The translations under genes and the position numbers were made by a program. A DNA stretch of 64,000 bases from assembly GCA_045114615.1 (NCBI GenBank), contig JBGUKU010000099.1, forward strand, positions 1,385-65,384, read 5' to 3'. Under the pieces are notes generated by a model. It saw nothing but the letters and a program-made list of their open reading frames with translations, searched no databases and was not told the DNA's origin. Positions 29,929 through 47,671 of this stretch are shown piece after piece (position 1 is the stretch's first letter; each line of letters opens with the position of its first letter). The DNA comes from Anaerovoracaceae bacterium (GTDB lineage Bacteria > Bacillota > Clostridia > Peptostreptococcales > Anaerovoracaceae).

Positions 29929-29955
29929 GAGACCCTTCTCAGGGTCTCTTTTTTT
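29929..29955 (+). terminator. Rho-independent terminator of the aminotransferase gene
   Basis: GAGACCCT-tctc-AGGGTCTC followed by TTTTTTT. The hairpin overlaps the stop codon of the convergent minus-strand gene. Confidence 0.75.
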
Positions 29956-32581
29956 CGAGCAGCTTCATAAGTATCTGTACTTCTTTAGTCTTTTCAAGTT
30001 TATCATAAAATTCCGATGAGAACTCCTCACCGTCAAAGTCATGAGCAGTGATTACGAATTCTTCGAGCTGTGCTGTCTCAAATCTGAGCAGGCCTGTTTC
30101 TTCATTGTATTCCGCTCTATATGCTTTTATCGTCTCTTCAGATGTCTTGTCTTCTTCAGCAAATACCGCATACAGCTGTCTGTCTCTGAAATCTTCCGGA
30201 AGCTCGTAATCCATGACCACTTCTACCGGCATTCCCAGTTTTGTTAGAGCCGTACCGTTTTTATATGCTGAAAGTACATAATACAGTGCCTCTTCTGCAT
30301 TATCTTTTCCGTCGTTAAGATCGTACATGTCGACTGCAAGGCTGATCGTACTGCCGGATGAATTGCTGACTTTTACCGGTCCGGAATTACCAGATTTAAC
30401 AGCTTTATTTGGCTTAACCGTCCTGGAATCATGTGTTTTTTTCGTGTCGTCTGACTTTACAGTATCAGGTTTGCTATCCGTTTTATCAGACTCGTCCGGT
30501 TTGCTTATGAGTCCGGTTCCGGTAAGGATTCTTTTTGCATTTCCTCCGATCGTTCCTGATCCGGTACGGGAGGAAATCGTAGTTGTTATCACCGAACCCG
30601 GCGCCGGTTCATGAATGCCTATATAATCAGCTTTACGGATCAGATAGATATTATCGGCAGAAATCTGTTCACCCGGACTACGAAGCACTGTGACTGTAAG
30701 CCTTCCGTTTATGTATCTGAAAATCTGATAGACTTCATTAACTCCCCCATAACCGTATTTTTCATGCAATACATCGTAGGATATGACCTTATCATCCCCT
30801 GCATCAAAAGCGTTGAACGGATCAAGCATGATATATTCCCCGCTTTCATAGGACGCTGTATGTCCGTAAAAGTCATTTCCGTCAAAATACGTGTGTTCAA
30901 AGAAGTTTAACGATACAACAGGTATCTCCTTCTGATCAGGAACAGTAACCAGATCCTTTGGTCCCATGAATACCGGCCCGCCGGTACCCATGGATACAGT
31001 TCCTGATCCGCTGTAATCGAATACTACAGGCGCTCCTTGTCTTCCATTGTAATCGCAGCTGCCGGTTTTTGCTCCATTCAGCAATTTGAAATTTTCCTCC
31101 AGATCTATTACTCCGGACCTTAAATACAATTCTCCTCTGTCAACAGATTCTGTAAGCTTCAGTTCATCGCTGCGGATTCCCCATCTCCCGTAAATATCCA
31201 GCCGGTCACCGTCCTGCATTATAATGTTTTTGATAACAGAGCCATGTTCGTAGTATAGTTCAGAGCTGCCGGTGTTTGTGAGTTTTTCGATCTGGCAGCT
31301 TCCATTCAGACTCAGAATGGAATCTTTGATTTTGATATTCAGCTCCTGCCCCTTATTTAGCCGGATCAATGAATTTTCAAGAACACCACTCCCCGAATAA
31401 TCACCATCGATATCAATGATATATCCTTTGAGTTGCCCTGATGTGATCCTGCCGTCATTAACAAGGTTCTTAACTACCTCTAAACCATTTACGACCTGGG
31501 TTATTAAAGCTCCATTCTCCAAAACAAGGTTGTCGACAGTGAGATGGCCATTGAAAACAGCACTATCTGTATATTTTTCACCTTTCTTCCATTCCTCACT
31601 TCCCCTCTCCATAAACTTGTAGATAGGATCACCGTTCTCATCATAATTTATATTTACAAATAACGATGTGATCCTGAGACTGGAGTTCCCTGGCAATACG
31701 AGCGTTGTTCCTTCCGGTAAAACGATCTCATCATCGATCACGCCTGTAACACTGCCATTGATAAGCTTGTAACTTCCATCATCCTGTCGCAGAAACAGTG
31801 CAGCACTTCCGCCATCTTCACCATAAAACTCAGTAACGGAGTGCAGGTTAAGCGCACTGTATTCAGAAATTTCAATTTTGTCGATCAGTATGATACCGGT
31901 ACCAATGATATCGATCTGCCCGTCAAACGAAAGTGTGCCTACTTTGCTGATACCTGTAGTAACAATGGTCACGCCGGTCCCGTTTGCCGTAATATCCGTT
32001 TTTTCTTTGAGCCCATCCAGAACAATGGTATTGTTGCTGCTGTCATAACTCCATCCGTCTCCGGATCCGTTTGAGCTGCCATCCAGCGTGGTTCCTGCAA
32101 TGGTTATCTTCTTTTCAGCAGGTGTACCTAAAGTTTCAGAACCCTGAGAAGCAAGGCTTTTACGTAAAGTGATGGCCGCCGGCTCTGAAGTTTTTTCAGA
32201 AGATTCAGGAGTCGCATCTTCCGGTTCAATACATGTCTGATCTGCATCTGCCGGTCCGTCTATTCCGGTCTCAGTTCCGACTGCATCCTGGATCTGCTCC
32301 TCCGGTACTTCAGCTGATTCGGATCCTGACTGCACCTGCTCTTCCTGCGCTGCCGTATTTTCTATTGTCTCCTGTACAGGTGTGCTTTCCGGTGCTTCTG
32401 CTTCTGTATTCTGAGATGCAGCGTTTTCAGAGACATGGTCAGCAACATCCTGTGAAGAACTGCCGCACTGCTCCTCTGCAGCAATATCCTCAATATCCTC
32501 TGCAAATACGACACATGCAGAAGGAATGACCATCAGCATGACCAAAACCATGCAAAGTCCTTTTCTTATAATTCTGTGCAT
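29939..32581 (-). CDS. Large secreted protein B (paralogue of 35509-38154): signal peptide + acidic low-complexity linker + beta-rich repeat region + conserved acidic C-terminal module
   Basis: Start refined to ATG 32581 (MHRIIRKGLCMVLVMLMVIPSACVVFA-ED), 7 nt after AAAGGAG. Colinear similarity to the other giant, e.g. KKITIAGTTLDGSSNGSGDGWSY...GTGIILIDKIEI and C-terminal LYAVFAEEDKTSEETI...FDGEEFSSEFYDKLEKT. No LPXTG motif and no C-terminal TM segment. Confidence 0.75.
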   Translation of the reverse strand: MHRIIRKGLCMVLVMLMVIPSACVVFAEDIEDIAAEEQCGSSSQDVADHVSENAASQNTEAEAPESTPVQETIENTAAQEEQVQSGSESAEVPEEQIQDAVGTETGIDGPADADQTCIEPEDATPESSEKTSEPAAITLRKSLASQGSETLGTPAEKKITIAGTTLDGSSNGSGDGWSYDSSNNTIVLDGLKEKTDITANGTGVTIVTTGISKVGTLSFDGQIDIIGTGIILIDKIEISEYSALNLHSVTEFYGEDGGSAALFLRQDDGSYKLINGSVTGVIDDEIVLPEGTTLVLPGNSSLRITSLFVNINYDENGDPIYKFMERGSEEWKKGEKYTDSAVFNGHLTVDNLVLENGALITQVVNGLEVVKNLVNDGRITSGQLKGYIIDIDGDYSGSGVLENSLIRLNKGQELNIKIKDSILSLNGSCQIEKLTNTGSSELYYEHGSVIKNIIMQDGDRLDIYGRWGIRSDELKLTESVDRGELYLRSGVIDLEENFKLLNGAKTGSCDYNGRQGAPVVFDYSGSGTVSMGTGGPVFMGPKDLVTVPDQKEIPVVSLNFFEHTYFDGNDFYGHTASYESGEYIMLDPFNAFDAGDDKVISYDVLHEKYGYGGVNEVYQIFRYINGRLTVTVLRSPGEQISADNIYLIRKADYIGIHEPAPGSVITTTISSRTGSGTIGGNAKRILTGTGLISKPDESDKTDSKPDTVKSDDTKKTHDSRTVKPNKAVKSGNSGPVKVSNSSGSTISLAVDMYDLNDGKDNAEEALYYVLSAYKNGTALTKLGMPVEVVMDYELPEDFRDRQLYAVFAEEDKTSEETIKAYRAEYNEETGLLRFETAQLEEFVITAHDFDGEEFSSEFYDKLEKTKEVQILMKLLEKKRP

Positions 32582-32597
32582 AACAGGTCTCCTTTCT

Positions 32598-34661
32598 TTA
32601 GAATAACTGCATCTCATTGATAACTGCATTTATTTCATCGCTGATCATTCCGGCATCTTCCTGTGCCTCCAGATCGCGTTTTATAGTATCAGCCTCTCCA
32701 AGTCCCGATGACGCTATTTCCCTGAACAGGCTGACTGCTCTATCGCTGTTGCCGGAGTACAGACATGCATAGGCATAGTTCAGTTTTACCAGCATGTTAT
32801 CCGGCTGGAGTTCGAGAGCTGACGATGCGGATGCGAGCGCAGCATTATAGTCTCTCAGGTGGATAAGTTCATAATATGAACGCCAGGCGAGGTACTGAGC
32901 CCGGTGATACTCTCCGAGAGACTCTGACACCTGACTGTATTCCCCCAGCCCCCGAGCGAAAAGCCTTTCTGACTTGTCGTATTCGTGCGCCTTGAATGCG
33001 TTTTCGCCGGTATTGAGCAGGCTTACCGCATATGCTGCGCGGTCCGGATCCGAACCTGTTTTTGCATATATCTTTCCGTAGACATCCGATGCATCAGAGT
33101 AATACTCATCAGCGGTGATGTAGTTTCCGCGGATATTGTGGCTGAGTCCTCTGTTGTTATAAAGCTCCGCCAGCATCTGCTGATATGAAATGTTTTCTTC
33201 GTCCTGTGCGAGTATCTCTGCATCTTTGATGGCTTCCTCGTAATAGCGGTCAGCATCTTCATAGTTTCCCGCATCCGTCAGACATGCGGCAAGCATGGAT
33301 GCGATCTGGATGCTGTTACTCCTGTTCTGGAGCGAATCGTTCATTCCTACAAGGGCATTAATGTCTTCATATGCATCTGACAGCATATCTGCTGCATCAT
33401 TGTACAGACCTGATCTATAGAGGAGTACTCCGTAATCGTATTTTACAGTACTGAGTGCATCAAGCACGTCTGCAGACTTATCCATACTGTCAAGAAGTCC
33501 CAGGCTCTGCTCAAAGCGTTCTGCCGCCAGATTTCCGTTTCCAAGATCGATAGCATTGCTTCCGGAGTTGAAGATCATTCTCGCCAGAACAAGATCGTCT
33601 CCGTGTGCAAGCGCCTGCTGCATGCCGATGGCCTTGTCGTAATCCTCTCCTGCCTCTTCATAGCGGCCTGCGGAGTTCAGTATGATAGCCCTGTTGTTGT
33701 ATCCGGATGCTGTACCGGCCTCCGCTTTTTCATATCCGGATCCTGCCAGCGTCTCGAACAGTGAAATGGCTGTGGTCTCGGAATCAAGAGCTTCATTATG
33801 CATTCCGAGAACATTCTCTGCCGTAGCCAGCTTTTCATAGTTTACGGCAGCCTCATACTCTCCTGCCTCTTTGTTGCGTGTCAGCCTGAGGATCTTATTT
33901 ATATCCTCAGTATTGTTGTACAGTATGTCACGGATACGGCTGTATGATCCCGGAACATCCGCAAGGCTGTCAGGCAATCCGTAGGTTAGATCATTCAGGA
34001 TCTGCATTGAAGCTGCTTCACGTTTTTCAGCTTCATTTCTGTAATTCTGTGCGCGTATCATCAGGCTCAGCGAGACTGCAAGTATCAGGACAAATGCAGC
34101 GGCACAGGTGACAGCACGTTTTACGACGTTTCTGTTCTGTTCTAACTGGTGCTCTCTGGCCAGCTCCTCCTCAGTGCAGCCGGCAATGCATGCGATCACC
34201 TTGAGCATCTCAGATTCGGCAAGAGACATCATCCTGCGAGTATCATTCCCCGGAACACGTATATCCATGAGCCTGTCCATTATATCCGGTATCAGCTTCA
34301 TGGATGCAGGGAATGAGGTATCAGGATCTCCGCTTATGAGTATCGGGAATACATGATCTGCTCTGCCGAGCTCAATGAAAGTTGCCACCTCCCTGTCTAC
34401 CCATTCAGACGAAGGAGTATCGGTCGAGCATACCACTACAAGGCAATCTGTGGAATGCAGAGCCTTGTCTATCGTATCGGTAAGTATCCTGCTTACAGGC
34501 AGCTCTTCAGTATCCCTGAAAGCACGCCTTACTCCATGCATTCCCCTTTCACGCAAAGAGGCAGGCAGACGGTAATTCTCTGCCAGATTGAACAGTTTCT
34601 GCGTTATCTCACTGTCCAGCGGCCTGTGGCGGTAGCTGAAGAACACATCGTAATCAAACAT
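32598..34661 (-). CDS. TIR domain - single TM - TPR-repeat protein
   Basis: 687 aa. N-terminal DVFFSYRHRP...CLVVVCSTDTPSSEWVDREVATFIE...VFPILISG is a TIR-domain signature (betaA FxSY, W-x3-E). One TM segment at aa 183-202. The C-terminal ~440 aa consist of repeated A/Y/N-rich 34-aa TPR-like units (YNNRG.., EEA/YEEAI..). GGGAGG RBS. Confidence 0.8.
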   Translation of the reverse strand: MFDYDVFFSYRHRPLDSEITQKLFNLAENYRLPASLRERGMHGVRRAFRDTEELPVSRILTDTIDKALHSTDCLVVVCSTDTPSSEWVDREVATFIELGRADHVFPILISGDPDTSFPASMKLIPDIMDRLMDIRVPGNDTRRMMSLAESEMLKVIACIAGCTEEELAREHQLEQNRNVVKRAVTCAAAFVLILAVSLSLMIRAQNYRNEAEKREAASMQILNDLTYGLPDSLADVPGSYSRIRDILYNNTEDINKILRLTRNKEAGEYEAAVNYEKLATAENVLGMHNEALDSETTAISLFETLAGSGYEKAEAGTASGYNNRAIILNSAGRYEEAGEDYDKAIGMQQALAHGDDLVLARMIFNSGSNAIDLGNGNLAAERFEQSLGLLDSMDKSADVLDALSTVKYDYGVLLYRSGLYNDAADMLSDAYEDINALVGMNDSLQNRSNSIQIASMLAACLTDAGNYEDADRYYEEAIKDAEILAQDEENISYQQMLAELYNNRGLSHNIRGNYITADEYYSDASDVYGKIYAKTGSDPDRAAYAVSLLNTGENAFKAHEYDKSERLFARGLGEYSQVSESLGEYHRAQYLAWRSYYELIHLRDYNAALASASSALELQPDNMLVKLNYAYACLYSGNSDRAVSLFREIASSGLGEADTIKRDLEAQEDAGMISDEINAVINEMQLF

Positions 34662-34663
34662 GT

Positions 34664-35509
34664 CTAGCCTCCCGTTACAGGCTGACCGCTCTCAGCCGTA
34701 TCATCAAGACCGAGCTCCTCAAGGGAACTCCTTGCATTATCCACTGCCTGCTGTATGTATACCAATGCCTGCGGTTCATCTGCGAATGCCGCCGGCAGTT
34801 CGTTCATCGTCCTCTCAGCGATCTCACGGCACAGTTTTGCCTGCTGATCTGCTATCTCACCTTCTGTGCGGGCAACATGTCCCAGATATGCAAATATCCC
34901 TGCCGCTCCCAAGCAGACAGCAGCGATCACAGATACCAGCATAATTATCGCTTTTCTGCGGCGCATGCGGTGGCGCTGCTCAAGGGCATCAGGATGCAGT
35001 CCCAGGATTGATGCGATGATCCTGACAGTCTCATAGCTCAGCGCTTCCCTCCAGCGCGAGCGGGTCTCTGCGCGAAGATCTGACGCTACAGGCTCTATGG
35101 TCTCGACGCGCTCAACGACAGTCATGTCAGGAAGTATCTTCTGAACGGTCTTTTTCTCAATAAAAGACTCCGGGAAAGAGTCGATAGGCTCTCCCCGGAC
35201 TATCACAACGATAATATTATTATCTTTTCCGATCTTGCGGAAATACTCAAGGCGCTCAAGTATGAACGGACTGGCCTTTGTTTCAGGCGAACAGAGCACT
35301 GCCAGAAAGCGGCTGTTGTCTAAGACATCACGTGTATCATCATCAAGCTCTCTGCCGGACACATCAACATACACCCGCCTGTAATCCAGTCCGCTGTCCG
35401 GAAGGACCACTCCTGACGGGAGTCTGTACTTGCGTATGCTGTCCGCAAGCTTATTTGCGACTGATGCATCCCCTGCTACGGCAATGATGCAGATATCAAA
35501 GTTCCGCAT
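34664..35509 (-). CDS. Divergent TIR-like domain - single TM - short ectodomain protein
   Basis: 281 aa. The N-terminal ~115 aa are colinear with the TIR of the next gene (FDICIIAV / KYRLP / FLAVLCSPETKASPFILERLEYF / IIVVIVRGEP). A basic cluster RHRMRRRK precedes the TM segment (aa 187-209), followed by a ~70-aa C-terminal tail. The ATG overlaps the upstream stop (TAATG). Confidence 0.65.
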   Translation of the reverse strand: MRNFDICIIAVAGDASVANKLADSIRKYRLPSGVVLPDSGLDYRRVYVDVSGRELDDDTRDVLDNSRFLAVLCSPETKASPFILERLEYFRKIGKDNNIIVVIVRGEPIDSFPESFIEKKTVQKILPDMTVVERVETIEPVASDLRAETRSRWREALSYETVRIIASILGLHPDALEQRHRMRRRKAIIMLVSVIAAVCLGAAGIFAYLGHVARTEGEIADQQAKLCREIAERTMNELPAAFADEPQALVYIQQAVDNARSSLEELGLDDTAESGQPVTGG

Positions 35510-38154
35510 TATCCTTCTTTTCTTTCTTTCAGATGTTCTATGAACAGCTTTGCCTCGTCCGTCTTCTCGAGCTCATCATAGAACTCAGGTGAGAATTCCT
35601 CGCCGTCGAATTCAAGTGCGGCGATAATAAACTCTCCCAGCTGTGAAGTCTCAAATCTGATCGTTCCGCTCTCTTCATCGTATTCGGCTTTTACAGCCGC
35701 AAGTGTCTCATCCGAGGTCTCATCTTCGTTGGCAAAGACCGCATAGAGCGGTTTATCCCTGAATTCCTCCGGAAGCACATACTCCATTTCCGCCTCGACA
35801 ACCCCGCTGAGTTCGGTGATCTGCGCACCGTTTATATATGACGTAAGGTTATAATACGGCGCTTTTTCGGCATTCTCAACGCCTTCGTTAAGATCGAACT
35901 CATTGATCTGAAGCACAATTGTATCACCTACTGTAGTGACTGCTGCGATCGTGTAATCACCGGCCGGTTTGCCAGGGTCCGGATCAACCGGTTTTGGCTC
36001 AGGCTTTGGTTCAGGCTTTGGTTCAGGCTTTGGTTCAGGTTTTGGTTCAGGCTCGACAGGATCCTCTGACGAGAACCTTGAAATGCCTGTTCCTGTAAAG
36101 ATAGGTTTGGAATTACCGCCAATATTTCCCGAGCCGGTCTGTGATGCATGTGTCGTAGTCATGGCAGATCCTCCAATGTTCTCTTCCGTAGCGGTCCGAA
36201 CCACCTTTCTTATCAGAAACACACCGTCAGCATCAGTGCTTTGCTGATAGCCATATCCAAGAATAGTCATGGACAATCTGCCGTTTTTGCAGCGGAGCAC
36301 CTCGAATAAAAATGGGGAAACCCCAAACTCTGATAATATCTCTTCAGGGACATAGGAGCTAAGCAGGTCAGTATAAGTAATCAAACCTTCTTCGTTTTTC
36401 TCTGATACATTATAGTCTGCAAGCTGAGTGTAAACCTCTTCTTCATTCACGTTTTCTTCCCATGTGTAATATAACAAGGGTTTCCTGGTATCAAGAAGAG
36501 CCAAAGACACGACCGGGATAGAATCAGCCTCCGGCATGATAATATCTTTCGGACCGAGGTATACAGATCCGTTTATCCCGTATGATACAGCACCTTTCCC
36601 GCTGTAATCGAACACCGGCCCTCCATATGTTTGGTTGCTTACTGTGGCTTCATTCACTTTAAGATCCGCTTCGAGTTCTGTAATAGCAGATTTGATCACA
36701 ACAGAGACTTTTTCGATCTCGTCAGTGATCTTAACAATACGATTGTCATTAAAAATATTTCTGCTGTATATACTCAACGAACCATTGGAAGAAGACTTTA
36801 TCTTCTTTAATTCAACATTACCCTCATAATATAGTTCGCAGTTTCCCGTGATGTTTAATTCATTGAGCGTATAATCACCACGCTCCAGAGAAACATTGGC
36901 ATCCCTGAGCTTGATGCTCGTTGTCTGGCCTTGGCTAAGTGTAATTATGGAATTCTCGATAATACCTGATCCCGAATAACCGACAGCGTCTACAAGGCCG
37001 CCGTTGATGACTCCATCATTTACCAGACTGCCGACAACTTTGAGGCTTGATATGATCACATCCGATACTCTATTGAGTTTGATCGTTGCGCCTTTTTTGA
37101 CAGTCAGATCGTTTACCTTCAGATTAGCTATGTAGTACCTGATAGCAGCTGCTTTCAATTCTTCTTCACTAAAGCCGGAATAGTCCCTTATGATAGTCTC
37201 ATTACCGTCTTCATCCGTCTCAACTACGACACCAAGAGCCTGAAGTTCAAGATAAGAGTTCTCAGGAAGTACAAGCTTCACATCTTCGATCTTATAATTC
37301 TCATCGACAATGCCTTTGACCGTTCCGTTAATAAGCATATATGATTCATCATCCTGTTTAAGGAATACTGCAACGCTGCCCCCGTCCTCTCCATAATAGT
37401 CTTTAAGAGGAAGAAGATTGAAGGAGCACCCTTCTGCAAGCTCAACCTTATCGATGAGAAGGATCCCGGTCCCGATAACATTGATGTCCCCGTCACAGGA
37501 AAGCGTTCCGATCCTGTTTAAACCGGTGGAAACGATATCGACTCCAGTGCCGTCTGATGTGATATCAGCGCTGTCTGTATAGTCCCTGAGAACTATCCTG
37601 CCGCTGTCCTTTTCGTAAGTCCATCCGCTTCCGCTGCTGTCGGCAGTGCAGTTGAGCTTAGTTCCGGCAATGGTAATCGTTTTATCTGTCTGAGCTGCTG
37701 TTCTTACTGATGCTGCAGCTGCCGGAGCAGGTGCATAAGCCGCTTTTGCCACAGCAGGTGCAGGCGCCGTATCTTTCGGATCTTCTTCAGGCCCGGACGG
37801 TTCAGGTGCAGCAGCTGACTCCGCCGTATCCTGCTCAGCAGGCTCGTACGGCTCGGGTTCTGCAGCCACTTCTTCAGCTGCAGTTCCGGCCTTTGCTTCA
37901 GATGCTTCTGGTGTTTGCATAGCTGCATTCTCAGATGATTCAGGTATTTGCGCAGCCGCACTCTCGCTTGATGCAGGAGCTGCAGGTTTCTCAGCTGCTG
38001 TCTCCGCCTCAGGCTCAGGCTGCACTGCTTCAGTATCAGCTGCTGTGTCCTGATCCTCCGGTAAAGTGTCGTCTGCAAAGACCTGCCACGTAAAAGGCAT
38101 GATCATAAGCATGATCATTAATATGCTGATGGTTTTGCGCGCATTACTTTTCAT
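35509..38154 (-). CDS. Large secreted protein A: signal peptide + Ala/Pro/Glu linker + beta-rich repeat region + (PEPK)n linker + conserved acidic C-terminal module
   Basis: 881 aa. Signal peptide MKSNARKTISILMIMLMIMPFTWQVFA-DD and AAGGGGGA RBS. Paralogous over its full length to 29939-32581. No sortase motif or C-terminal anchor. Confidence 0.8.
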   Translation of the reverse strand: MKSNARKTISILMIMLMIMPFTWQVFADDTLPEDQDTAADTEAVQPEPEAETAAEKPAAPASSESAAAQIPESSENAAMQTPEASEAKAGTAAEEVAAEPEPYEPAEQDTAESAAAPEPSGPEEDPKDTAPAPAVAKAAYAPAPAAAASVRTAAQTDKTITIAGTKLNCTADSSGSGWTYEKDSGRIVLRDYTDSADITSDGTGVDIVSTGLNRIGTLSCDGDINVIGTGILLIDKVELAEGCSFNLLPLKDYYGEDGGSVAVFLKQDDESYMLINGTVKGIVDENYKIEDVKLVLPENSYLELQALGVVVETDEDGNETIIRDYSGFSEEELKAAAIRYYIANLKVNDLTVKKGATIKLNRVSDVIISSLKVVGSLVNDGVINGGLVDAVGYSGSGIIENSIITLSQGQTTSIKLRDANVSLERGDYTLNELNITGNCELYYEGNVELKKIKSSSNGSLSIYSRNIFNDNRIVKITDEIEKVSVVIKSAITELEADLKVNEATVSNQTYGGPVFDYSGKGAVSYGINGSVYLGPKDIIMPEADSIPVVSLALLDTRKPLLYYTWEENVNEEEVYTQLADYNVSEKNEEGLITYTDLLSSYVPEEILSEFGVSPFLFEVLRCKNGRLSMTILGYGYQQSTDADGVFLIRKVVRTATEENIGGSAMTTTHASQTGSGNIGGNSKPIFTGTGISRFSSEDPVEPEPKPEPKPEPKPEPKPEPKPVDPDPGKPAGDYTIAAVTTVGDTIVLQINEFDLNEGVENAEKAPYYNLTSYINGAQITELSGVVEAEMEYVLPEEFRDKPLYAVFANEDETSDETLAAVKAEYDEESGTIRFETSQLGEFIIAALEFDGEEFSPEFYDELEKTDEAKLFIEHLKERKEG
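35989..36054. repeat. 12-bp in-frame tandem repeat (about 5 copies of AGGCTTTGGTTC) encoding (PEPK)n
   Basis: Direct reading gives cggttttggctc aggctttggttc aggctttggttc aggctttggttc aggttttggttc. On the coding strand this is EPEPKPEPKPEPKPEPKPEPKP. Confidence 0.9.
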
Positions 38155-38169: not shown

Positions 38170-39723
38170 TCAGACAGCAGACCTGTCTGCGACTCCGGCA
38201 AGCATCTCCCATGCAAAAGCGTCTTTTTCTTTATCTTCTTCACTGAGTTCTGAATACGGGAGCATCATAGGATGCCTGCGCATCAGATCGTTCCTTTCAG
38301 GTGAGTATGTCCAGTTGTACATCTGGTGGTATCTCATCCAGCGTCTGTGCTCCATCTCCCTGCATATGTCCCTCTTATCAGGGTCTGCATCGCTGAACAC
38401 ATCATATGCTCTGCGGCAGTTCTCTTCCGTGAGCTCCGTGATGCTGTCGTCATCGAGAAGATATCGGACCTTTACGATCATGTGATCGGCCGCAGCTATG
38501 TTGGAACGTTTCAGATGATCGCTGAGATCGCTCCATCCGCCAGTTTTGCCAGATCCTTCGTTATAGATATCGTTGAGCGTGACCGCAAGCCTGTTGATAT
38601 CGTCCCTGACAAATGCTCTCATCGTAAATATATCTTTGCTGCTGCCAAAACAGCTGATCTTTTCAACTGTATTGTTTAACCTGACATGGACTTTTGCAGC
38701 TGTCGGGAACAGCATCATGATCTCTTTATAAGTTGCCAGATCGCTCCTGTCATCATCCTCACAGATGATGATCCTGTCGGCATTGCGTATGATCTCCGGA
38801 TGATACTCCCAGCATTCTTCGTGGAGGAACAGTGCGTCATCTTCAGGATCTCCGCCGCATAAAGTTCTGACTGCCTCACGGTGTGACTTCCTGAAATCCG
38901 AGGAATCTCCAAAGACATGGTAGCAGATGTATCTGCCCGGCTCGAATACATTGGTAAGGAGTCCCCTTTCAAGCAATTCTGCTGCGATCTTTCCGCTGCC
39001 GATCAGAACTATGGTCTTCTCGTCTTTGCGTAAAGGATGATCTCTCCAGTAGCACCTGCTGATGATCTCTTTTTTGCTGAATGTATGAAGGCTGCCCGAT
39101 ATCTCGTCAGACCCGAAGTCTGTAAGGCAGTACGTATCTATATCCAGACCGGCAGCATCTGTCGCCTGACGGTAATTCTCCCATGAGTCTTCACCCAGGC
39201 AGAAATACTTTATATCCTGCCCGCTCCCCTTCAGATCGATGAGTTCTTCAGGATTGCAGTCAAGGCGCACAACAGCCCTGCCGCCTATCCGGTTTTCTGC
39301 CGAGCGGCGGAAAATAATGGCGGCGTCAGGGTCATCAGCAAGAACGGATCCTGCAAATACAGCAGACTGCTCGTTCTCCTCACTGATCGCATACCATCTG
39401 CGGTCCCTTAACGACCGGAGTCTGAATCGCGGTCTTGCCTGTCCACTGATAAAACTTATCAGTACACCTACAAGTGCGGTGAACACCCCGAGACTGCAAA
39501 GGGCAAGAATTACACCAAGTGCTTTTCCTGCAGGGGTCACAGGGGAAAGATCTCCGTAACCTACTGTTGTAAGTGTAATGACAGAGTACCAGATGGCATC
39601 CCCTATACTGTGTATGGACGAACCCTCTGCCTTTGATTCGGCAGCCAGCAGCAATATAAGTACCGCCGCATATGCAGCTATAATCGCTATCACTATCCGT
39701 ATGTTTCTTTTTCTGCTGCTCAT
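38170..39723 (-). CDS. 2-TM K+ channel (TVGYGD filter) with cytoplasmic Rossmann-like domains and a C-terminal RyR domain
   Basis: 517 aa. TM1, pore helix, TTVGYGD (codons at 39550-39567), TM2. TIVLIGSGKIAAELLERG is Rossmann-like. C-terminal EMEHRRWMRYHQMYNWTYSPERNDLMRRHPMMLPYSELSEEDKEKD matches the RyR-domain (PF02026-type) signature as I remember it. The start overlaps the upstream stop (ATGA). Confidence 0.8.
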   Translation of the reverse strand: MSSRKRNIRIVIAIIAAYAAVLILLLAAESKAEGSSIHSIGDAIWYSVITLTTVGYGDLSPVTPAGKALGVILALCSLGVFTALVGVLISFISGQARPRFRLRSLRDRRWYAISEENEQSAVFAGSVLADDPDAAIIFRRSAENRIGGRAVVRLDCNPEELIDLKGSGQDIKYFCLGEDSWENYRQATDAAGLDIDTYCLTDFGSDEISGSLHTFSKKEIISRCYWRDHPLRKDEKTIVLIGSGKIAAELLERGLLTNVFEPGRYICYHVFGDSSDFRKSHREAVRTLCGGDPEDDALFLHEECWEYHPEIIRNADRIIICEDDDRSDLATYKEIMMLFPTAAKVHVRLNNTVEKISCFGSSKDIFTMRAFVRDDINRLAVTLNDIYNEGSGKTGGWSDLSDHLKRSNIAAADHMIVKVRYLLDDDSITELTEENCRRAYDVFSDADPDKRDICREMEHRRWMRYHQMYNWTYSPERNDLMRRHPMMLPYSELSEEDKEKDAFAWEMLAGVADRSAV

Positions 39724-41582
39724 TTTACTGACATTTCTCCTTGTTTAAGGATCTCAGGAATAATCAGAACGTTATTGATGTCATACTGCTTGTAGTCCAC
39801 AGCACGCCCTGTAATGGATCTTTCTTTTTCTGACAGATCATCAAGCTCATCCCACGGTATCAGGCAGGCATGAGTGCGGTTTTCAGAATCCTTGAACAAC
39901 CTGATGCCCGGGAGGCCTTTTTCAATGTGTTTTCTGTATGTATCAGCTCTTTCATCGAGCTCAGCGCTGCTCATAGGTGAGTATCCCATCACGAAGTGGA
40001 ATGCATTCCATCTGAGATGCTCCATCTCGCCTAATACTTCCATAACATCCGCGGCCGGCGGCCAGCAGCCTGCCATTACCTCGTCTGTTGTCAGACCTGA
40101 TGCACTTATGAATGCCGGTATGAAATCAGCAGAAGCGCGTGATGACATCTTGCTGAACGAGTCGCATGCCACCCATTTCTCCCAATCTGTCCTGTCAGAA
40201 TCATCATAAGTGCTGTTAATGATGATCGCATCACGGTCTGCTTTCTGTGCTGAAAGATACTCGAGTGAATAGATATCGGCGGTGATGATCGGACTGCCGA
40301 CTGTCTCCTGATATCTGACACCATCTTTTCCGCACCTGATGACACAGATATGTTCAGCTTTACGGCGCTTCAGATACATCATAAGATTATCCGAGATCTC
40401 GCGGTCGCTCTCTTCACTTCCGGTGCAGACCGCTATAAGCTTGAGAGTACTCAGCCTGTTATCGACGTAGTGATAGAACTCAATGCTCCTGCCATCCGCG
40501 TTGAAGCTTCTGATATCATAGTTTTCAAACATCGATGAGCACTCGGCTTTCATGTACCCTGCCTCTTTTTCAAAATTCGGTGAAAAAACAGCAGCGTGGA
40601 ATGTGCTGCCTGCAAACTGTCCGTTCATCAGCAGCTGTTTCAGTACAGCCTGTCCATGTCTGCCGAAGCCCACTATGGCGCAGTCAAAATCTTCCTGAGC
40701 ACGGCCGTCACTGCCGAATCTCACAAGTTCCCAAGGCGGGCAGGTCTTTATCAAAGCCCTTGCTGAAAGCATGGCACTGTCATAAACGTTGACGTAACCG
40801 TATCCGTACTGATCCGCAGATACCTGCAGCATCGAAGTTATGATATCTTCAGCTCCCGGAAGAGTAATGGCTGTTTTTTCAGGAGAGACGCCTGCTTCTT
40901 TAAGGGCATTTTTCAAGCCAAGAGCATAAAACAGATCTTTGTCCTCTTCATCCATTGCGAACACTTTTATATTGCGCCGGCTGACCCTGAGCCTTCTCAT
41001 CACGGACTTGTCGGACGATACAGCTGCGGGACCGCTTATAACGGACATCCCCATGTTGTTGAGATCTGTCACAGTGGAAGGATCGACATTTTCAGAAACG
41101 AAAATCACAGAACCGGCACCCCGTTCACGGCATTCCTTGCCCAGGCTTATGCTGCGGTCGTTGATTCCGTAGATCAAAGTCAGATCACCTTTTGCAGAAA
41201 GGATCATGCGCAGGTATCTCAAAGCTTCCTCACCGAGCGTGAACATCGCAGCACTGGCCATAGAATAAAACGCCAGAAGATGTATGATCCAGAATAATAC
41301 GATCCTGAACGGTGTCCCGACAGGTGAAGTGCCTTCTATTGATCCGTAATCATTTATGCCGACGAACATTTTTATCACACAAAAAGGCGTGCGGATCATG
41401 CTGAGCCCGATGTCACCGGTGCTTTCAGCAAATCCAACGCCATATATAAGTACACCTCCGGCAAAGGCTATGATCATGCATATGGTTGTGAGCCTGGCAG
41501 AAAAAGATGGTTTCAGAGCAAGGTTAAGAACCATTGCCAGAAGCAATGCAGTTGACAGGATAACAACAGTCACACTCGTCAT
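39720..41582 (-). CDS. Multi-TM protein with TrkA-N-like Rossmann domains and a C-terminal RyR domain (no pore signature)
   Basis: Start refined to ATG 41582, 5 nt after AGGAGG (track start is GTG 41588). ~5 N-terminal TM segments. AIVGFGRHGQAVLKQL is a Rossmann motif. C-terminal EMEHLRWNAFHFVMGYSP...HACLIPWDELDDLSEKE is an RyR-domain signature. Confidence 0.75.
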   Translation of the reverse strand: MTSVTVVILSTALLLAMVLNLALKPSFSARLTTICMIIAFAGGVLIYGVGFAESTGDIGLSMIRTPFCVIKMFVGINDYGSIEGTSPVGTPFRIVLFWIIHLLAFYSMASAAMFTLGEEALRYLRMILSAKGDLTLIYGINDRSISLGKECRERGAGSVIFVSENVDPSTVTDLNNMGMSVISGPAAVSSDKSVMRRLRVSRRNIKVFAMDEEDKDLFYALGLKNALKEAGVSPEKTAITLPGAEDIITSMLQVSADQYGYGYVNVYDSAMLSARALIKTCPPWELVRFGSDGRAQEDFDCAIVGFGRHGQAVLKQLLMNGQFAGSTFHAAVFSPNFEKEAGYMKAECSSMFENYDIRSFNADGRSIEFYHYVDNRLSTLKLIAVCTGSEESDREISDNLMMYLKRRKAEHICVIRCGKDGVRYQETVGSPIITADIYSLEYLSAQKADRDAIIINSTYDDSDRTDWEKWVACDSFSKMSSRASADFIPAFISASGLTTDEVMAGCWPPAADVMEVLGEMEHLRWNAFHFVMGYSPMSSAELDERADTYRKHIEKGLPGIRLFKDSENRTHACLIPWDELDDLSEKERSITGRAVDYKQYDINNVLIIPEILKQGEMSVK

Positions 41583-41655
41583 AAGCACCTCCTGTTCTGA
41601 TCCGGAAGAGTTGCAGACAATATTCTCTGAATACGGAAACTCCGTAATATTTATG

Positions 41656-44466
41656 CTATCGAAGTACAGATGTAAGAGTCCTCATCAGCACGCCTACATC
41701 AACCGGTTTGGCCACATGACCCTGCATGCCGGCTTCCGCAGCAGCATCTACGTCCTCTTTAAAAGCATTCGCAGTCATTGCTACAATAGGTATCCCGGCA
41801 AGTGCTTTGTTATCAAGGTTCCGTATCGCCCTCGTAGCCTCATAGCCGTCCATGACAGGCATCTGTATGTCCATCAGGACAGCATCGTAGTATCCCGGCT
41901 CTGAAGTCTCAACCATTTCCACTGCGATCTTACCGTTTTCAGCTGTTTCCACATTAAATCCCGCCTGCATGAGTATCATGTTGGCAATCTCCATATTTAC
42001 CAGATTGTCTTCTACAAGAAGGATCCTCTTTGTACTGAAGTCGATTTCCGGCTCAGAAGCCGCTTCACCCGATGCTGAGCCGTCACGGAGTTTTTCCGAA
42101 TCCGGCACATCACCCGCTTCGGCAAGCTTGAACTTCAGCCTTATCACAATCTCGGTCCCGCTGCCCGGAGCAGTCATGACCTCTATGGTTCCACCCATCA
42201 GGTCTACAAGACTCTTTGTGATGGAAAGCCCGAGTCCTGTTCCTTCTATTCCGCTGACAGTAGATGTGCGCTCGCGTTCGAAGGCATTGAACATCCTTTC
42301 GGCAAATTCTTTCGACATGCCTATGCCGCTGTCCTGCACCCTTATTTCATATGTGCCGTAGCCATTGTCGGTCGTTCCGGACTGCCAGATCGAGGCACTG
42401 ACTGAACCGCCTTCCGGCGTGAATTTGCACGCGTTGCTCAGAAGGTTAAGGAGTACCCTGTTGACGTTCTTGCGATCGCACCATACATAGCGATCCTCAA
42501 TCTGATTCGTGTGCACGCTGAAGTTCAGGTTCTTGTCCTTCATCTGCTCAGAGAACAGCTCGCTTATGCCGTCAAATACTGCGTAGAGATCTACAGGAAC
42601 GTATTCCAGCTCCATCTTTCCGTTCTCAATGCGGCTCATCTCGAGAATGTCGTTGATGAGCGCCAGAAGATGCTGACTGGAGTTTTCTATCTTATCGAGA
42701 TATTCTTTGACTTCATCCGATGCCTCGCCGTTTCTGGCAAGATTTGTGTAGCCGATTATGGCGTTCATCGGGGTGCGGATGTCGTGCGACATGTTGAACA
42801 GGAACTGGCTCTTGGCAAGGCTGCTTTCAACCGCATGTATCTTTTCGCGCTCGGCCGCGGCGTGTTTTTCCCTTACGAGGTTCTGCACGTAAAGCATGAT
42901 TGCCAGGCCTGCGAATACCAGGAGAAGCATTATGACTCCTCCTCCTGTGAGCACCTGTCTCATCTGATCCGCATCAGGAGCTGCCAGTACCCGCTTGGCG
43001 AGCCACATCAGCGCTGAATACAGAAGCAGAGCGAACAATATTATGCCTGACGCGGACAGTCCGCTGTACTCGGTAAGTGAGCTCCTCTCTACCGTACGCC
43101 AGTAGAACACGAATCCCAGCAGGCACCAGAGTGACAGAAGCAGGAACGCCTCGCTGCCCATGGCCTCCATCGCCAGGATCCTCGGCACCATCTGTACTAT
43201 AGCGAATATCACAGAGATGGCGGCACCGGTCATGCCGGTGATCATCACCCTGTTATTGCCCTCCATCCGGGCTATCTTATACGCAGCTGCTGAAGTATAT
43301 CCGAAACCTACAATGGCACCGAATGATGTCAGGTCTACAAACCATATGAGGGTGTTGCGGCCGAAAAGCGACAGCACTATAGCTATTGCCATTATGAAAA
43401 GTATGCTGTATGTCGTGCTTGAGAACTTTTCTGAAAGGATGCGGTCCTCGGCCATAGTTGAGAGCACGCGTGTTGTAGCCCGGTAGCCTCCGATAATGCC
43501 TGTCATTATTGCTGAGACGGCGGTGACTGTCATCAGGATGAGACCTGCCTTTCCCATGACGGATCTGGCCACGTGGAACGTAGGGACTGAATCTATGCCT
43601 TTAATCCCGTCCAGCCCGGCGACGTAATCCATCCAGGATGAGAATCCGTCAGGTACGGAAGCAACACTTATGAGCGTCATGGCTATATACGCCATCGTCG
43701 CTATTATTATGGACGTGACGATTATCTTTCCCGACTTTCTGACAGGGAAATTGAAGTGAGCCGTTTCGAAAGATGTGATCTCAAATCCGACGAATGCCCA
43801 CGGAGCCAGAATGGCTATGCTGAATATCGCGTTAGCTCTGCTGATCCCGGCGGTGCCAAATGTCCAGATGAATCCGCTGGAGAATGCATGCGGCAGGCAG
43901 AATACCGAGATTATCGCTATACCCGTTACAAGGATGAGAGAAAACACAGTAAACATCCTCTGAAGAACTGCCTTTGCCGCGATGAACATCAGGCCTACTC
44001 CCGCCAGCACCGCTACAGACAGGAAAGTCTCTTTCAGATATATGGTGTTTCCCGCGACGACATAGCTGATGCCCTTCTGAGCCTCTTCGCCCATCAGAGT
44101 CCTCACTATGATGAACAGCGCAGTGCCGTTCAGGAATACTATCGTCAGATATGACAGGCAGAGAAACCACGAGCTTATGAACGCGTGATCCCTTCCGAAT
44201 GCTTCCTTGGTGTATGTGTAGATACCGCCTGTGATCGAAGTCCTTCCCATGAGGTATGAGATGTTCCTTGCTACGATCAGCATTATTACCATTCCTATGA
44301 GCATGGCGATCAGCGTTCCGGCCGGTCCCGCGACAGGCAGGAACGTCGTTCCGGGCATGGCAAATACGCCCCAGCCGACCATGCAGCCGAAGGCCATCGC
44401 CCACACATCGATCGGCGAAAGATACCTGTCCAGTGGTTTCGTTATATCTCTATCATGCATTTCCAT
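41656..44466 (-). CDS. Hybrid sensor histidine kinase with an N-terminal APC-family amino-acid-permease-like domain
   Basis: 936 aa. Residues 1-~440 resemble APC permeases (LSPIDVWAMAFGCMVGWGVFAMPG...AGPAGTLIAML...GGIYTYTKEAFG), with extra TM segments after them. Then HisKA (FLFNMSHDIRTPMNAIIGY), HATPase (GTGLGLSI) and a C-terminal REC domain (ILLVEDN...DIQMPVMDG). Confidence 0.8.
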   Translation of the reverse strand: MEMHDRDITKPLDRYLSPIDVWAMAFGCMVGWGVFAMPGTTFLPVAGPAGTLIAMLIGMVIMLIVARNISYLMGRTSITGGIYTYTKEAFGRDHAFISSWFLCLSYLTIVFLNGTALFIIVRTLMGEEAQKGISYVVAGNTIYLKETFLSVAVLAGVGLMFIAAKAVLQRMFTVFSLILVTGIAIISVFCLPHAFSSGFIWTFGTAGISRANAIFSIAILAPWAFVGFEITSFETAHFNFPVRKSGKIIVTSIIIATMAYIAMTLISVASVPDGFSSWMDYVAGLDGIKGIDSVPTFHVARSVMGKAGLILMTVTAVSAIMTGIIGGYRATTRVLSTMAEDRILSEKFSSTTYSILFIMAIAIVLSLFGRNTLIWFVDLTSFGAIVGFGYTSAAAYKIARMEGNNRVMITGMTGAAISVIFAIVQMVPRILAMEAMGSEAFLLLSLWCLLGFVFYWRTVERSSLTEYSGLSASGIILFALLLYSALMWLAKRVLAAPDADQMRQVLTGGGVIMLLLVFAGLAIMLYVQNLVREKHAAAEREKIHAVESSLAKSQFLFNMSHDIRTPMNAIIGYTNLARNGEASDEVKEYLDKIENSSQHLLALINDILEMSRIENGKMELEYVPVDLYAVFDGISELFSEQMKDKNLNFSVHTNQIEDRYVWCDRKNVNRVLLNLLSNACKFTPEGGSVSASIWQSGTTDNGYGTYEIRVQDSGIGMSKEFAERMFNAFERERTSTVSGIEGTGLGLSITKSLVDLMGGTIEVMTAPGSGTEIVIRLKFKLAEAGDVPDSEKLRDGSASGEAASEPEIDFSTKRILLVEDNLVNMEIANMILMQAGFNVETAENGKIAVEMVETSEPGYYDAVLMDIQMPVMDGYEATRAIRNLDNKALAGIPIVAMTANAFKEDVDAAAEAGMQGHVAKPVDVGVLMRTLTSVLR

Positions 44467-47400: not shown

Positions 47401-47671
47401 GAATATGAGACAGACGATTATCTTCCTTTATCGCTTTCAGCACATCAAGGCCGGACATTCCCGGCATCAGAATATCGAGCAGGACCAGTGAAAGCGTCTC
47501 ACGGTATTGCTCTATCATCTCCAGTGTCTTTATACCGTCCTCAGCAAACAGAACCTCATAGTCATCTCTGAGCATCTCCCCCAGAATCTCACGGTTGATC
47601 ATCTCATCGTCTGCTATCAGGATCTGTCTCTTTCCGTTGACAGTATGAAATACTTCATGGCCTTTAAGCAT
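44453..47671 (-). CDS. REC - degenerate GGDEF - EAL - TM - ~190-aa loop - TM - GGDEF protein (c-di-GMP turnover)
   Basis: 1072 aa. REC (ILIADDE...DILMPGMSG). First cyclase-like domain with RQEADTF in place of GGDEF. EAL domain (EALVRW, DDFGTGYSS). Two TM segments flanking a helical loop. C-terminal intact RIGGDEFAV. Confidence 0.85.
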   Translation of the reverse strand: MLKGHEVFHTVNGKRQILIADDEMINREILGEMLRDDYEVLFAEDGIKTLEMIEQYRETLSLVLLDILMPGMSGLDVLKAIKEDNRLSHIPVIVMTAEKETEVDSLRLGAADFIPKPYPAVDVVHARVLRTIELSEDREIIQSTEKDLLTGLYNKEFFYRYAEQYDHYHKDKEMDAVIIDVNHFRMVNERYGKSYGDEVLRLIGEQLLETVSVRGGLACRQEADTFLLYLPHGGSLEDILDGASKRLAEQSLSDNRIRLRMGVYECADRSIDIERRFDRAKMAADSAKGSFTKTIGIYDDMLHEKQLYAEQLIEAFPAAIREKQFQVYYQPKFDVRPDTPVLTSAEALVRWIHPELGMISPGDFIPLFEENGLIQQLDYYVWEESARQIRDWKDRLKYSVPVSVNVSRIDMYDPNIVETLEELTERHGLSGRDMLLEVTESAYTQDSAQIIETAQRLREKGFQIEMDDFGTGYSSLNMISTLPIDALKLDMQFIRNAFKEDGNTHMLEVIIGISDFLSVPVIAEGVETEEQLQALKNIGCDIVQGYFFSKPVPSEKFEPFILQKKEADAAYKKAASVQKNARPESDESRRVKLDLMRRNESAQGDSDIKETYIDDDSHSAIQLKTATVFFTILAFLAAAALLFADISVTKGYQYMEAASDRYIAAQIAASDMEAGSDYLTDRVRCFVVTGEMEYLEDFIEEVEVTRRRDKAVESLGELLGEDESGALDNLNAALASSNELVVYENKAMRLILEAGKYDMSTVPANIANVQLTPEERRLTPEQMKDLAETLVFDNNYMHYKDRIRENVGLCTKSLIRSSSQELEKASTKLSLLVKLQTWITVLFLLIVLAIVMIITRMIRRPLTNMVKLMQNQEIIPPTGVEELRFVTRTYNQILQENRAAREKLSHEASHDALTGLFNRGAYDLIMESVDTKHMALILIDVDYFKTVNDTYGHAVGDRVLKRVAELLKTSFRSVDVLCRIGGDEFAVIMTRANSSMSQLVLNKMNRVNEILQHPKDDLPPVSLSVGIAFSDREDPQGDIFSDADSTLYKVKEAGRKGCAVFGYEKTLTDGNA

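Follow-up and report, generated by a model that had tools for sequence, protein, structure and literature searches.

Do bacteria possess TIR proteins that are arranged across the membrane in the manner of the Toll-like receptors (TLRs) of animals, with a repeat domain outside the cell and the TIR domain inside? The question is raised by a gene in a stretch of 64,000 nucleotides (nt) from the Anaerovoracaceae bacterium assembly GCA_045114615.1 (contig JBGUKU010000099.1, positions 1,385 to 65,384 of the forward strand), referred to here as the window, whose product combines a TIR domain, one transmembrane (TM) segment and an array of TPRs (hereafter the TIR-TM-TPR protein). The experimentally characterised bacterial TIR systems in the searchable literature all sense and signal within the cytoplasm, and a survey published in 2024 noted that TLR-like membrane and repeat features seem to be absent from bacterial TIR systems (PMC11350192). 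We compared the protein and its neighbours with their homologues, and asked where its TIR domain would lie, whether it is likely to be catalytic, and which of the genes encoded around it could act together with it.

Architecture and conservation of the TIR-TM-TPR protein

The gene and the parts of its product have the following window coordinates:

32598..34661, minus strand: TIR-TM-TPR gene, 687 amino acids (aa), ATG start (Pfam TIR and TPR matches, AlphaFold2 (AF2) model, homologues)
34167..34661, minus strand: TIR domain, aa 1-165, predicted to be cytoplasmic (Pfam, profile search of PDB, 40% invariant columns)
34056..34112, minus strand: single TM helix, aa 184-202 (Kyte-Doolittle (KD) mean 2.57, the sole such peak; within the AF2 helix 164-233)
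33882..34052, minus strand: conserved juxtamembrane segment, aa 204-260, predicted to lie on the outer face and common to the short paralogue described below (35% invariant columns)
32601..33881, minus strand: TPR solenoid, aa 261-687, predicted extracytoplasmic sensor (Pfam, AF2 hairpins, Foldseek, 11% invariant columns)

The protein begins with MFDYDVFFSYRH, and no hydrophobic, signal-like stretch was found there in the hydrophobicity scan. Its N-terminal part matched two TIR families above their Pfam cutoffs, ThsB_TIR at aa 7-105 (34.9 bits, cutoff 21.2) and TIR_2 at aa 34-113 (31.2 bits, cutoff 28), and when a profile of the TIR domain was searched against the PDB sequences, TcpB/BtpA came first (E ~0.004), followed by PdTIR, AtTIR, and AbTir. 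A 19-residue Kyte-Doolittle scan gave exactly one strong hydrophobic peak, at aa 184-202, with a mean of 2.57. The region that follows, between aa ~270 and ~650, matched TPR_12 (66 bits), TPR_1 (46.6 bits), and TPR_2 (38.2 bits), all above the Pfam thresholds. In the AF2 model of the full-length protein, which was built on 33 homologues and has a mean predicted local distance difference test score (pLDDT) of 87.8, an alpha/beta TIR domain (aa 1-160) is followed by one unbroken helix (aa 164-233) and by an all-helical solenoid that extends to the C-terminus. Foldseek matched the solenoid to LGN, SPY, OGT, Tom70, and IFIT5; when the full-length model was searched against PDB, TPR proteins alone were returned, with no TIR structure among the matches. 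A preliminary description, made from the letters of the window, had listed an N-terminal TIR domain, no signal peptide, exactly one hydrophobic span and TPR-like repeats behind it, and all four features are borne out by these searches and by the model, as are the nucleotide coordinates that it gave for the span.

More than 300 homologous protein clusters were found, and nearly all of those listed have a length of ~680-690 aa and the same Pfam content, down to 52% identity. The single hydrophobic peak stands at the same position in 33 of 33 aligned homologues, its hydrophobicity being kept while the sequence varies. The TIR-TM-TPR architecture is thus no chance feature. Conservation is distributed unevenly along the protein, with 40% invariant columns in the TIR domain and 35% in the juxtamembrane segment (aa 204-260), compared to 11% in both the TM helix and the TPR array. 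Strong conservation of the TIR and juxtamembrane parts next to weak conservation of the TPRs would fit a constrained enzyme and interface that are coupled to a diversifying sensor.

The putative catalytic site

34389..34403, minus strand: WxxxE motif W87-V-D-R-E91 with the putative catalytic Glu91 (invariance; alignment to W213..E217 of BtpA)

The motif S-S-E-W87-V-D-R-E91-V of the 687-aa protein had been likened in the preliminary description to the surroundings of the catalytic glutamate in TIR domains that cleave nicotinamide adenine dinucleotide (NAD+), and the homologues lend support to this comparison. W87, D89, R90, and E91 are invariant in the 33 homologues, down to 52% identity, and the Trp and Glu of the motif are unchanged in 42 distant TIR-TM relatives that share 16-39% identity with the protein. 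In the comparison of the TIR profile with the PDB sequences, W-V-D-R-E91 falls on W-P-A-R-E of TcpB/BtpA. W213 and E217 of BtpA form its WxxxE catalytic site, and the exchange E217A abolishes both NAD+ hydrolysis and toxicity (PMC7188309). The profile evidence that puts E91 at the catalytic position is weak but consistent, and together with the strict conservation it points to a TIR domain that has probably retained its catalytic residue.

Membrane topology

The charges on the two sides of the TM helix suggest how the protein is inserted. Across the 33 homologues, the 15 residues before the helix contain a mean of 5.7 lysines and arginines (K+R) and have a net charge of +4.5, compared to 3.5 K+R and +0.6 for those after it, and the N-terminal flank is the more basic of the two in 28 of them. 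The same bias is present in the short paralogue (69 of 70 sequences) and in the wider TIR-TM relatives (114 of 115). When the positive-inside rule is applied to this bias, the TIR domain is placed in the cytoplasm and the TPR array outside. The region of ~450 aa that contains the TPRs (aa 235-687) is strongly acidic, with a net charge of -40. Propellers of the PQQ/BamB type are typically extracytoplasmic, and such propellers follow the TM segment in relatives with the same N-terminal module. The predicted form is an N-in/C-out single-pass protein of the signal-anchor type II, without signal peptide. The flank charges and the propeller-bearing relatives agree with the argument of the preliminary description, which had arrived at a cytoplasmic TIR and an extracytoplasmic TPR region from the location of NAD+ in the cytoplasm. 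Its further claim, that the protein follows the logic of animal TLRs with inverted polarity, holds for the layout, but as the predicted ectodomain consists of TPRs instead of leucine-rich repeats (LRRs), the orientation is of type II and the output is likely enzymatic, we retain it as an analogy only.

A short TIR-TM paralogue as probable partner

34664..35509, minus strand: 281-aa TIR-TM paralogue (the short paralogue), whose TIR domain is degenerate and lacks the catalytic Glu (BLASTP, alignment, TM scan)

The TIR-TM-TPR gene is directly preceded by a gene for a second TIR-TM protein, and this arrangement is found in 72 of 76 loci. The 281-aa product aligns in BLASTP with aa 16-250 of the long protein (24% identity, E 3e-14) and has one TM segment (aa 188-206), which is preceded by RHRMRRRK. 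In three orthologues of this short paralogue, the column of Glu91 is occupied by R, C, or R and that of Trp87 by F, A, or A, and the motifs FSYRH and RAFRDTEEL are missing; the Pfam TIR scores of the short paralogue are below threshold. At its C-terminus, the short paralogue can be aligned to the conserved juxtamembrane segment of the long one, which suggests that the two proteins probably pair through this region and their TM segments.

A K+ channel with a RyR domain and its paralogue

38170..39723, minus strand: candidate effector, a K+ channel of 517 aa in which a 2-TM pore is followed by two RCK-like domains and, at the C-terminus, a RyR (R12) domain (Pfam, AF2, Foldseek)
39550..39570, minus strand: K+ selectivity filter T-T-V-G-Y-G-D, channel aa 52-58 (read from the sequence)
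38173..38436, minus strand: RyR/R12-type domain, channel aa ~430-517, with H459, W462, H484, and D501 (tblastn and alignment to RyDEP)
39720..41588, minus strand: channel paralogue of 622 aa; four hydrophobic helices and a filter degenerated to FVGINDYG, with regions that resemble RCK and, at the C-terminus, RyR (hhalign)

Further upstream in the same cluster lies a gene for a 517-aa protein that matched the Pfam families Ion_trans_2 (60.7 bits) and RyR (29.1 bits, cutoff 27.4). Its AF2 model (pLDDT 85.3) consists of a pore with two TM helices, a pair of Rossmann-like domains and, at the C-terminus, a helical module, and Foldseek returned GsuK as the best match, followed by Slo1/Slo2.2, MthK, CASTOR, and TrkA (E 2.6e-6 to 1e-3). 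In 30 channel homologues, Y56 is nearly invariant and the other filter residues (T52, T53, V54, G55, G57, and D58) are fully so. On this evidence, the partner gene encodes a K+ channel of the tandem-RCK, GsuK-like kind whose TVGYGD filter is intact. PDB entry 4gx1, the ADP-bound GsuK, was part of the Foldseek output, and we take GsuK to be modulated by NAD+, ADP, and Ca2+; its response to NAD+ and ADP was reportedly described by Kong et al. in 2012.

The last 90 residues of the channel matched gp78 of the mycobacteriophage DyoEdafos, i.e., RyDEP, in a tblastn search against phage genomes. RyDEP was described in 2026 as an enzyme that cleaves 2'/3' cyclic ADP-ribose (2'/3'cADPR), with H75 and D117 as the catalytic dyad and with W78 and H100 contacting the adenine and the phosphates; six of eight tested homologues form stable complexes with 2'/3'cADPR, which are signals made by TIR domains, and two characterised homologues of the sponge type bind them with nanomolar affinity (PMC13232231). 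H459, W462, H484, and D501 of the channel align to H75, W78, H100, and D117 of RyDEP, and all four are invariant in the 30 channel homologues, down to 44% identity. By this alignment, the RyR domain of the channel keeps the full set of residues for contacting or cleaving 2'/3'cADPR, and it may bind such molecules.

The 622-aa protein encoded next to the channel has weak matches to MthK and TrkA_N and keeps the motifs EMEHLRW and THACLIPW. Its reading as an unknown protein was given up, as the comparison of profiles by hhalign (probability 98.8%, E 1.3e-16, 429 columns) shows a full-length paralogue of the channel.

Cassette layout and secreted proteins

35509..38154, minus strand: secreted protein A, 881 aa, with a signal peptide and no recognisable domain (hydrophobic peak at aa 9-27)
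29939..32629, minus strand: secreted protein B, ~880 aa, paralogous to A and encoded at the end of the cluster (signal-like peak at aa 25-43 of the listed open reading frame, ORF)
29929..29948, no strand assigned: terminator-like GC-rich hairpin with a T-run at the end of the six-gene cluster (pattern scan, consensus match only)

Six minus-strand genes form the cassette, in the transcription order 622-aa paralogue, channel, secreted protein A, short TIR-TM protein, TIR-TM-TPR protein, and secreted protein B. The junctions between them measure -4, +15, -1, +2, and -32 nt, the first being the overlap of 4 nt between the genes of the 622-aa paralogue and the channel, and the hairpin behind the last gene has 8 pairs, 5 of them GC, followed by TTTTTTT. 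The overlap of 32 nt concerns the listed ORF 29939-32629 and the stop of the TIR-TM-TPR gene; because the signal peptide begins at Met17 (MHRIIRKGLCMVLV...), the true start of protein B is probably nt 32581, which leaves a gap of 16 nt.

Secreted proteins A and B are 37% identical to each other (BLASTP, E 9e-175) and have no significant match in Pfam, NCBIfam, PADLOC, the PDB sequences or the source names. They belong to a small (37 matches) and fast-evolving family. Protein A bears an (EPKP)n linker at aa ~699-725. At distant loci, the C-terminal ~110 aa are the only detectable part of the secreted protein, always right upstream of the short TIR gene, and this hints that this part matters for the system.

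Distribution and co-occurrence

In a scan of one genome per species, the TIR-TM-TPR gene was found at 80 loci, all from gut metagenome-assembled genomes (MAGs) of Bacillota and nearly all from ruminants, and the window itself matches MAG RUG14658 at 99% identity. The taxa comprise Mogibacterium/Anaerovoracaceae, Oscillospiraceae/Ruminococcaceae, Lachnospiraceae, Christensenellaceae, Family XIII, and Solobacterium/Erysipelotrichaceae. For the analysis of co-occurrence, the channel was sought within 10 kb; as the counts are limited by the MAG contigs, they are given for those 41 loci whose upstream sequence extends over 9 kb or more. In these, the channel was present in 23, its paralogue in 26 and a homologue of the secreted proteins in 30; channel and secreted protein occurred together in 20 loci, the channel only in 3, the secreted protein only in 10, and neither in 8. 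The channel as an obligate part of the system is ruled out by its presence in just 23 of these loci.

The flanking genes vary by species, with the same cassette standing in three unrelated chromosomal contexts, and the channel pair is found upstream, downstream or divergently oriented relative to the TIR pair. A reverse scan, which started from channel homologues (loci L089-L092), recovered the order secreted protein, short TIR, TIR-TM-TPR, 622-like protein, channel in L089 and a minimal four-gene cassette in L092, while L090 ends at the contig edge and the TIR pair lies on L041, which has the same whole-genome shotgun prefix (JAFXYJ) and presumably belongs to the same MAG. The linkage between channel and TIR genes survives rearrangement, which argues for a functional coupling, though not an obligate one.

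In the most divergent branch of the family (36-37% identity), a DHH-DHHA1 phosphoesterase gene replaces the channel and secreted-protein genes directly upstream of the TIR pair (L075:8474-9988, L079:7116-8669, and L080:4177-5721). A nucleotide phosphoesterase as the replacement neighbour would be consistent with a nucleotide signal; as a general partner it was rejected, since it is confined to these three divergent loci. In L079 the short paralogue is longer (432 aa, with a weak TPR match), and a secreted protein of 1089 aa with a CAP domain follows. Some MAGs hold two or three diverged copies of the TIR-TM-TPR gene (L029 and L039; L050 and L064; L047 and L059; L023, L062, and L071), some of them without the short paralogue, which suggests a paralogous expansion of the receptor.

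The wider TIR-TM-repeat family

An exhaustive HMMER search with residues 1-260 returned 10,169 representative clusters with E limited to 1e-3 or below, and 4,987 with a limit of 1e-10; the weaker matches will include ordinary TIR proteins. We examined the 149 top matches, 131 of which are at least 450 aa long. Exactly one TM segment at residues 140-330, followed by a C-terminal region with a median length of 818 aa, is present in 115 (88%) of these long representatives. TIR profiles matched all of 42 sampled relatives, whose C-termini consist of WD40-type propellers (at least 16), PQQ/BamB-type propellers (12), or TPRs (11). The wider relatives come from Lachnospiraceae, Coriobacteriales, Chitinispirillaceae, and a gammaproteobacterial metagenome, and carry generic names only. 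From the single TM segment and repeat domain in 115 of 131 representatives, we predict that a TIR domain inside, one TM segment and a repeat domain outside constitute a general bacterial design. The window protein belongs to a TPR subfamily of this TIR-TM-repeat family, and this subfamily appears to have acquired the paralogue, the channel and the secreted partners.

At ~6 kb downstream of the cassette in the Mogibacterium MAG GCA_017433975.1 (L001:18031-20142), we observed a 703-aa protein with an N-terminal TIR domain (SSNCRRE, Glu retained), a Pro/Ala-rich linker, a TM segment at aa ~219-238 and C-terminal LRRs. By analogy of layout, this TIR-TM-LRR protein would be a still closer formal analogue of a Toll-like receptor. 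A T2SSE-type ATPase gene divergently adjoins a stand-alone TIR-TM-WD40 gene in two metagenome contigs (L087:6623-7669 and L088:1552-2598).

Proposed mechanism and alternative explanations

We propose that the TIR-TM-TPR protein would act as a type II membrane receptor-enzyme, with a cytoplasmic TIR NAD+-glycohydrolase or cyclase, one TM segment and an outer TPR sensor, and that the short paralogue would either restrain or nucleate the assembly of its TIR domains. TIR NADases need self-association, as is the case for SARM1, AbTir, and plant TIRs. A cue from outside, be it a ligand, a perturbation of the envelope or contact with a phage, and possibly transmitted by the secreted proteins, would alter the oligomeric state of the receptor, upon which the TIR domains would self-associate and cleave NAD+. 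In the window and at most of the related loci, a product of the ADP-ribose (ADPR) type could then be read by the RyR (R12) domains of the channel and of its degenerate-filter paralogue, or, alternatively, the fall in NAD+ could be read by the RCK domains. The resulting gating would change K+ flux and membrane potential, and the outcome may be growth arrest (abortive infection, as in Thoeris) or an adaptive physiological response. The sequence comparisons and models show the domain architecture, the conserved catalytic motif, the charge bias behind the predicted topology, the arrangement of the operon, the co-occurrence of its genes, the fold of the channel and the conservation of its cADPR-contacting residues, while we infer the enzymatic activity, the identity of the product, the ligand-gated assembly, the binding by the RyR domain, the gating of the channel and the biological role. 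To the full chain from receptor through TIR product to K+ channel we give an even chance. Our confidence is higher for a narrower part of it, namely that the protein would be an N-in/C-out catalytic TIR receptor which works together with a degenerate partner. The broadest statement, i.e., that a large class of bacterial transmembrane TIR receptors exists and that one of its subfamilies turns an extracellular cue into an ADPR-derived messenger gating a K+ channel through its RyR (R12) domain, is offered tentatively, as a possibility about which we remain rather doubtful.

Several points weigh against the proposed chain, which as a whole is a prediction. The placement of E91 depends on weak profile matches (E ~0.004), and the charge bias around the TM helix of the window protein itself is weak (4 vs. 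3 K+R). PADLOC matched the protein best to the TIR of TIR-SAVED, which depletes NAD+ as an effector and generates no signal, and pairwise BLAST found no similarity between this TIR and a TIR of Type X Thoeris, a system with an ion-channel effector that is discussed below. Within 10 kb, the channel is absent from 18 of the 41 well-covered loci (44%), and both channel and secreted protein are absent from 8 of them, while one of the channel homologues used in the reverse scan (L091) has no TIR pair within reach. For the two wider TIR-TM-propeller relatives that we examined, the gene stands alone in a housekeeping neighbourhood. Among the larger annotated ORFs of the 64-kb window, we found neither defence genes nor genes of mobile elements.

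The stand-alone relatives suggest that the TIR may itself be the effector, and the strongest competing explanation builds on this. The protein would then be a self-contained receptor whose TIR domains assemble upon a cue from outside and stop growth, as abortive infection or stress arrest, through depletion of NAD+ in the whole cell, with channels and secreted proteins that are independent of it or loosely associated. This is compatible with the distant TIR-TM relatives that lack partner genes, with the 44% of well-covered loci without a nearby channel, with the invariance of the catalytic Glu, and with the best PADLOC match, whose TIR belongs to a pure NADase effector. It leaves unexplained why the degenerate TIR-TM partner is near-obligate (72 of 76 loci), why the linkage to the channel pair is kept through rearrangements, and why the RyR domain has intact cADPR-contacting residues, and we regard it as unlikely.

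A second alternative keeps the coupling to the channel but gives the system a task other than phage defence, namely a chromosomal pathway of environmental sensing in which a nucleotide made by the TIR would tune K+ flux and membrane potential. Peptides of the rumen or the state of the cell wall are conceivable cues, and so is contact between cells that the secreted proteins might mediate. K+ channels with RCK domains are well known as regulators of physiology, an outer sensor with secreted partners would be unusual for the intracellular sensing of phages, and the cassette is conserved over ~80 gut Bacillota species. The housekeeping and signalling context also points away from a conflict system, as neither defence genes nor an integrase, a transposase or a tRNA gene were found in the 64 kb. 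The insertion sites that differ between species, the two to three copies in some genomes, the variable sensor domain and the fast-evolving secreted partners point towards one, and the experimentally characterised bacterial operons that combine a TIR with an effector are all anti-phage. We consider a purely physiological role to be quite improbable.

That the TIR domains of the long and the short protein are non-enzymatic scaffolds and serve as adaptors between proteins only, or that the helix is peripheral or re-entrant with TIR and TPRs both in the cytoplasm as in soluble TIR-TPR/STAND proteins, is very improbable, since the features in its favour (the short paralogue without Glu, so that at least one TIR is non-catalytic, the cytoplasmic TPRs of known bacterial TIR systems and the weak charge bias of the window protein) are outweighed by a Trp/Glu invariance, in the family and in the 42 distant relatives, that is hard to explain without catalysis, and by a single 19-residue segment with a KD mean of 2.57, whose N-terminal flank is basic in 114 of 115 relatives and which precedes propellers of the PQQ/BamB type in some of them, all of which points to a true membrane span with the C-terminus outside.

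Comparison with known systems

The receptor-to-channel model has its nearest counterpart in Type X Thoeris, which pairs the TIR protein ThsB with the ion-channel effector ThsK, was validated in Bacillus sp. BH32 and has an unknown signal (Yirmiya et al., bioRxiv 10.64898/2025.12.03.692087). Both have a TIR gene beside an ion-channel gene, and in both the channel is proposed to respond to a molecule made by the TIR. The TIRs of Type X are short, soluble and ThsB-like, whereas the one studied here is membrane-anchored and fused to a predicted extracytoplasmic TPR array, is accompanied by a degenerate TIR-TM partner, two RCK+RyR channel paralogues and secreted proteins, and lies outside any defence island. 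Neither RyR domains nor TM-anchored TIRs nor TIR proteins with TPRs are mentioned in the Type X paper. Direct relatedness to a Type X TIR was rejected for lack of BLAST similarity. The ThsB models of PADLOC gave weak partial matches only (E 6e-4 to 6e-3) and no curated Thoeris model applied; PADLOC and NCBIfam together gave no system-level assignment, with matches at the level of the TIR and of generic TPRs only. We thus do not file the locus under any described Thoeris type, and by analogy would describe it as Thoeris-type signalling with a membrane receptor as front end.

Soluble systems that combine TIR chemistry with TPR arrays in anti-phage contexts (BcTir/Tpr, E. coli TIR-II, ThsI of Type VIII Thoeris, and TIR-STAND-TPR) share these two ingredients with the window protein, but their TPRs are cytoplasmic, frequently form part of the effector or of a STAND NTPase, and are not divided from the TIR by a TM segment. 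With animal TLRs, the likeness is one of layout only, i.e., a solenoid repeat ectodomain, a single TM segment and a cytoplasmic TIR, which is predicted here; TLRs are type I proteins with LRRs and an adaptor TIR, whereas the window protein is predicted to be of type II, has TPRs, retains the NADase Glu and would probably signal enzymatically. No evidence of common descent with the TLR architecture was seen.

The channel resembles GsuK, MthK, and Slo in its 2-TM pore, the TVGYGD filter and two Rossmann-like RCK domains per subunit, and differs from them by the additional C-terminal RyR domain, the paralogue with a degenerate filter and the genetic linkage to TIR proteins. Its C-terminal domain is a PF02026 domain with a direct match to RyDEP, and keeps the equivalents of H75, W78, H100, and D117. 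RyDEP is a small soluble anti-defence enzyme or sponge of phages, whereas the domain studied here forms part of a cellular K+ channel and would either receive the signal or terminate it.

No bacterial TIR-TM-repeat receptors and no prokaryotic K+ channels with RyR domains were described in the literature searched, which under-covers subscription journals, so that an earlier mention, for example in work on comparative genomics, is possible. If the predicted topology is true, the window protein and at least hundreds of relatives with a TIR and a single TM segment would be outside-in TIR receptors, and it would have to be asked which cues at their surface bacteria detect by means of TIR enzymes. 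For animals, it has been disputed over decades whether molecules of the cADPR type gate a channel by direct action on its RyR-type domains, and the work on RyDEP from 2026 raised the issue anew (PMC13232231). If true, the model would provide a prokaryotic counterpart not only of the TLR layout but also of the long-disputed axis from cADPR to the ryanodine receptor, and as the RyR/R12 domain is here naturally fused to a simple K+ channel of the tetrameric type beside a TIR enzyme, its role in gating would become directly testable. It would also add a candidate class of effectors (RCK + RyR K+ channels) and a pair of catalytic and degenerate TIRs to the repertoire of TIR signalling.

Genomic context in the window

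The neighbours of the cassette in the 64-kb window are metabolic, transport and signalling genes. A location of the locus in a defence island or mobile element was considered and, on the larger annotated ORFs, rejected for this window. T2SSE and T2SSF genes (51634-52692 and 54386-55450) are present ~17-20 kb upstream of the cassette; that T2SSE-type genes occur here as well as beside the stand-alone TIR-TM-WD40 gene may be a coincidence. An amino-acid-permease (APC) domain is joined to HisKA-HATPase-REC in a transporter-like hybrid histidine kinase (41656-44466, minus strand), directly upstream of which lie a REC-EAL-GGDEF protein (44453-47671) and a histidine kinase with two REC domains (47689-50001). 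Two other fusions are unusual: on the plus strand, a MatE efflux domain is fused to HATPase_c_2, which resembles anti-sigma-factor kinases (8067-9812), and on the minus strand a Reg_prop propeller array is fused to a SpoIIE-type phosphatase (12116-15331).

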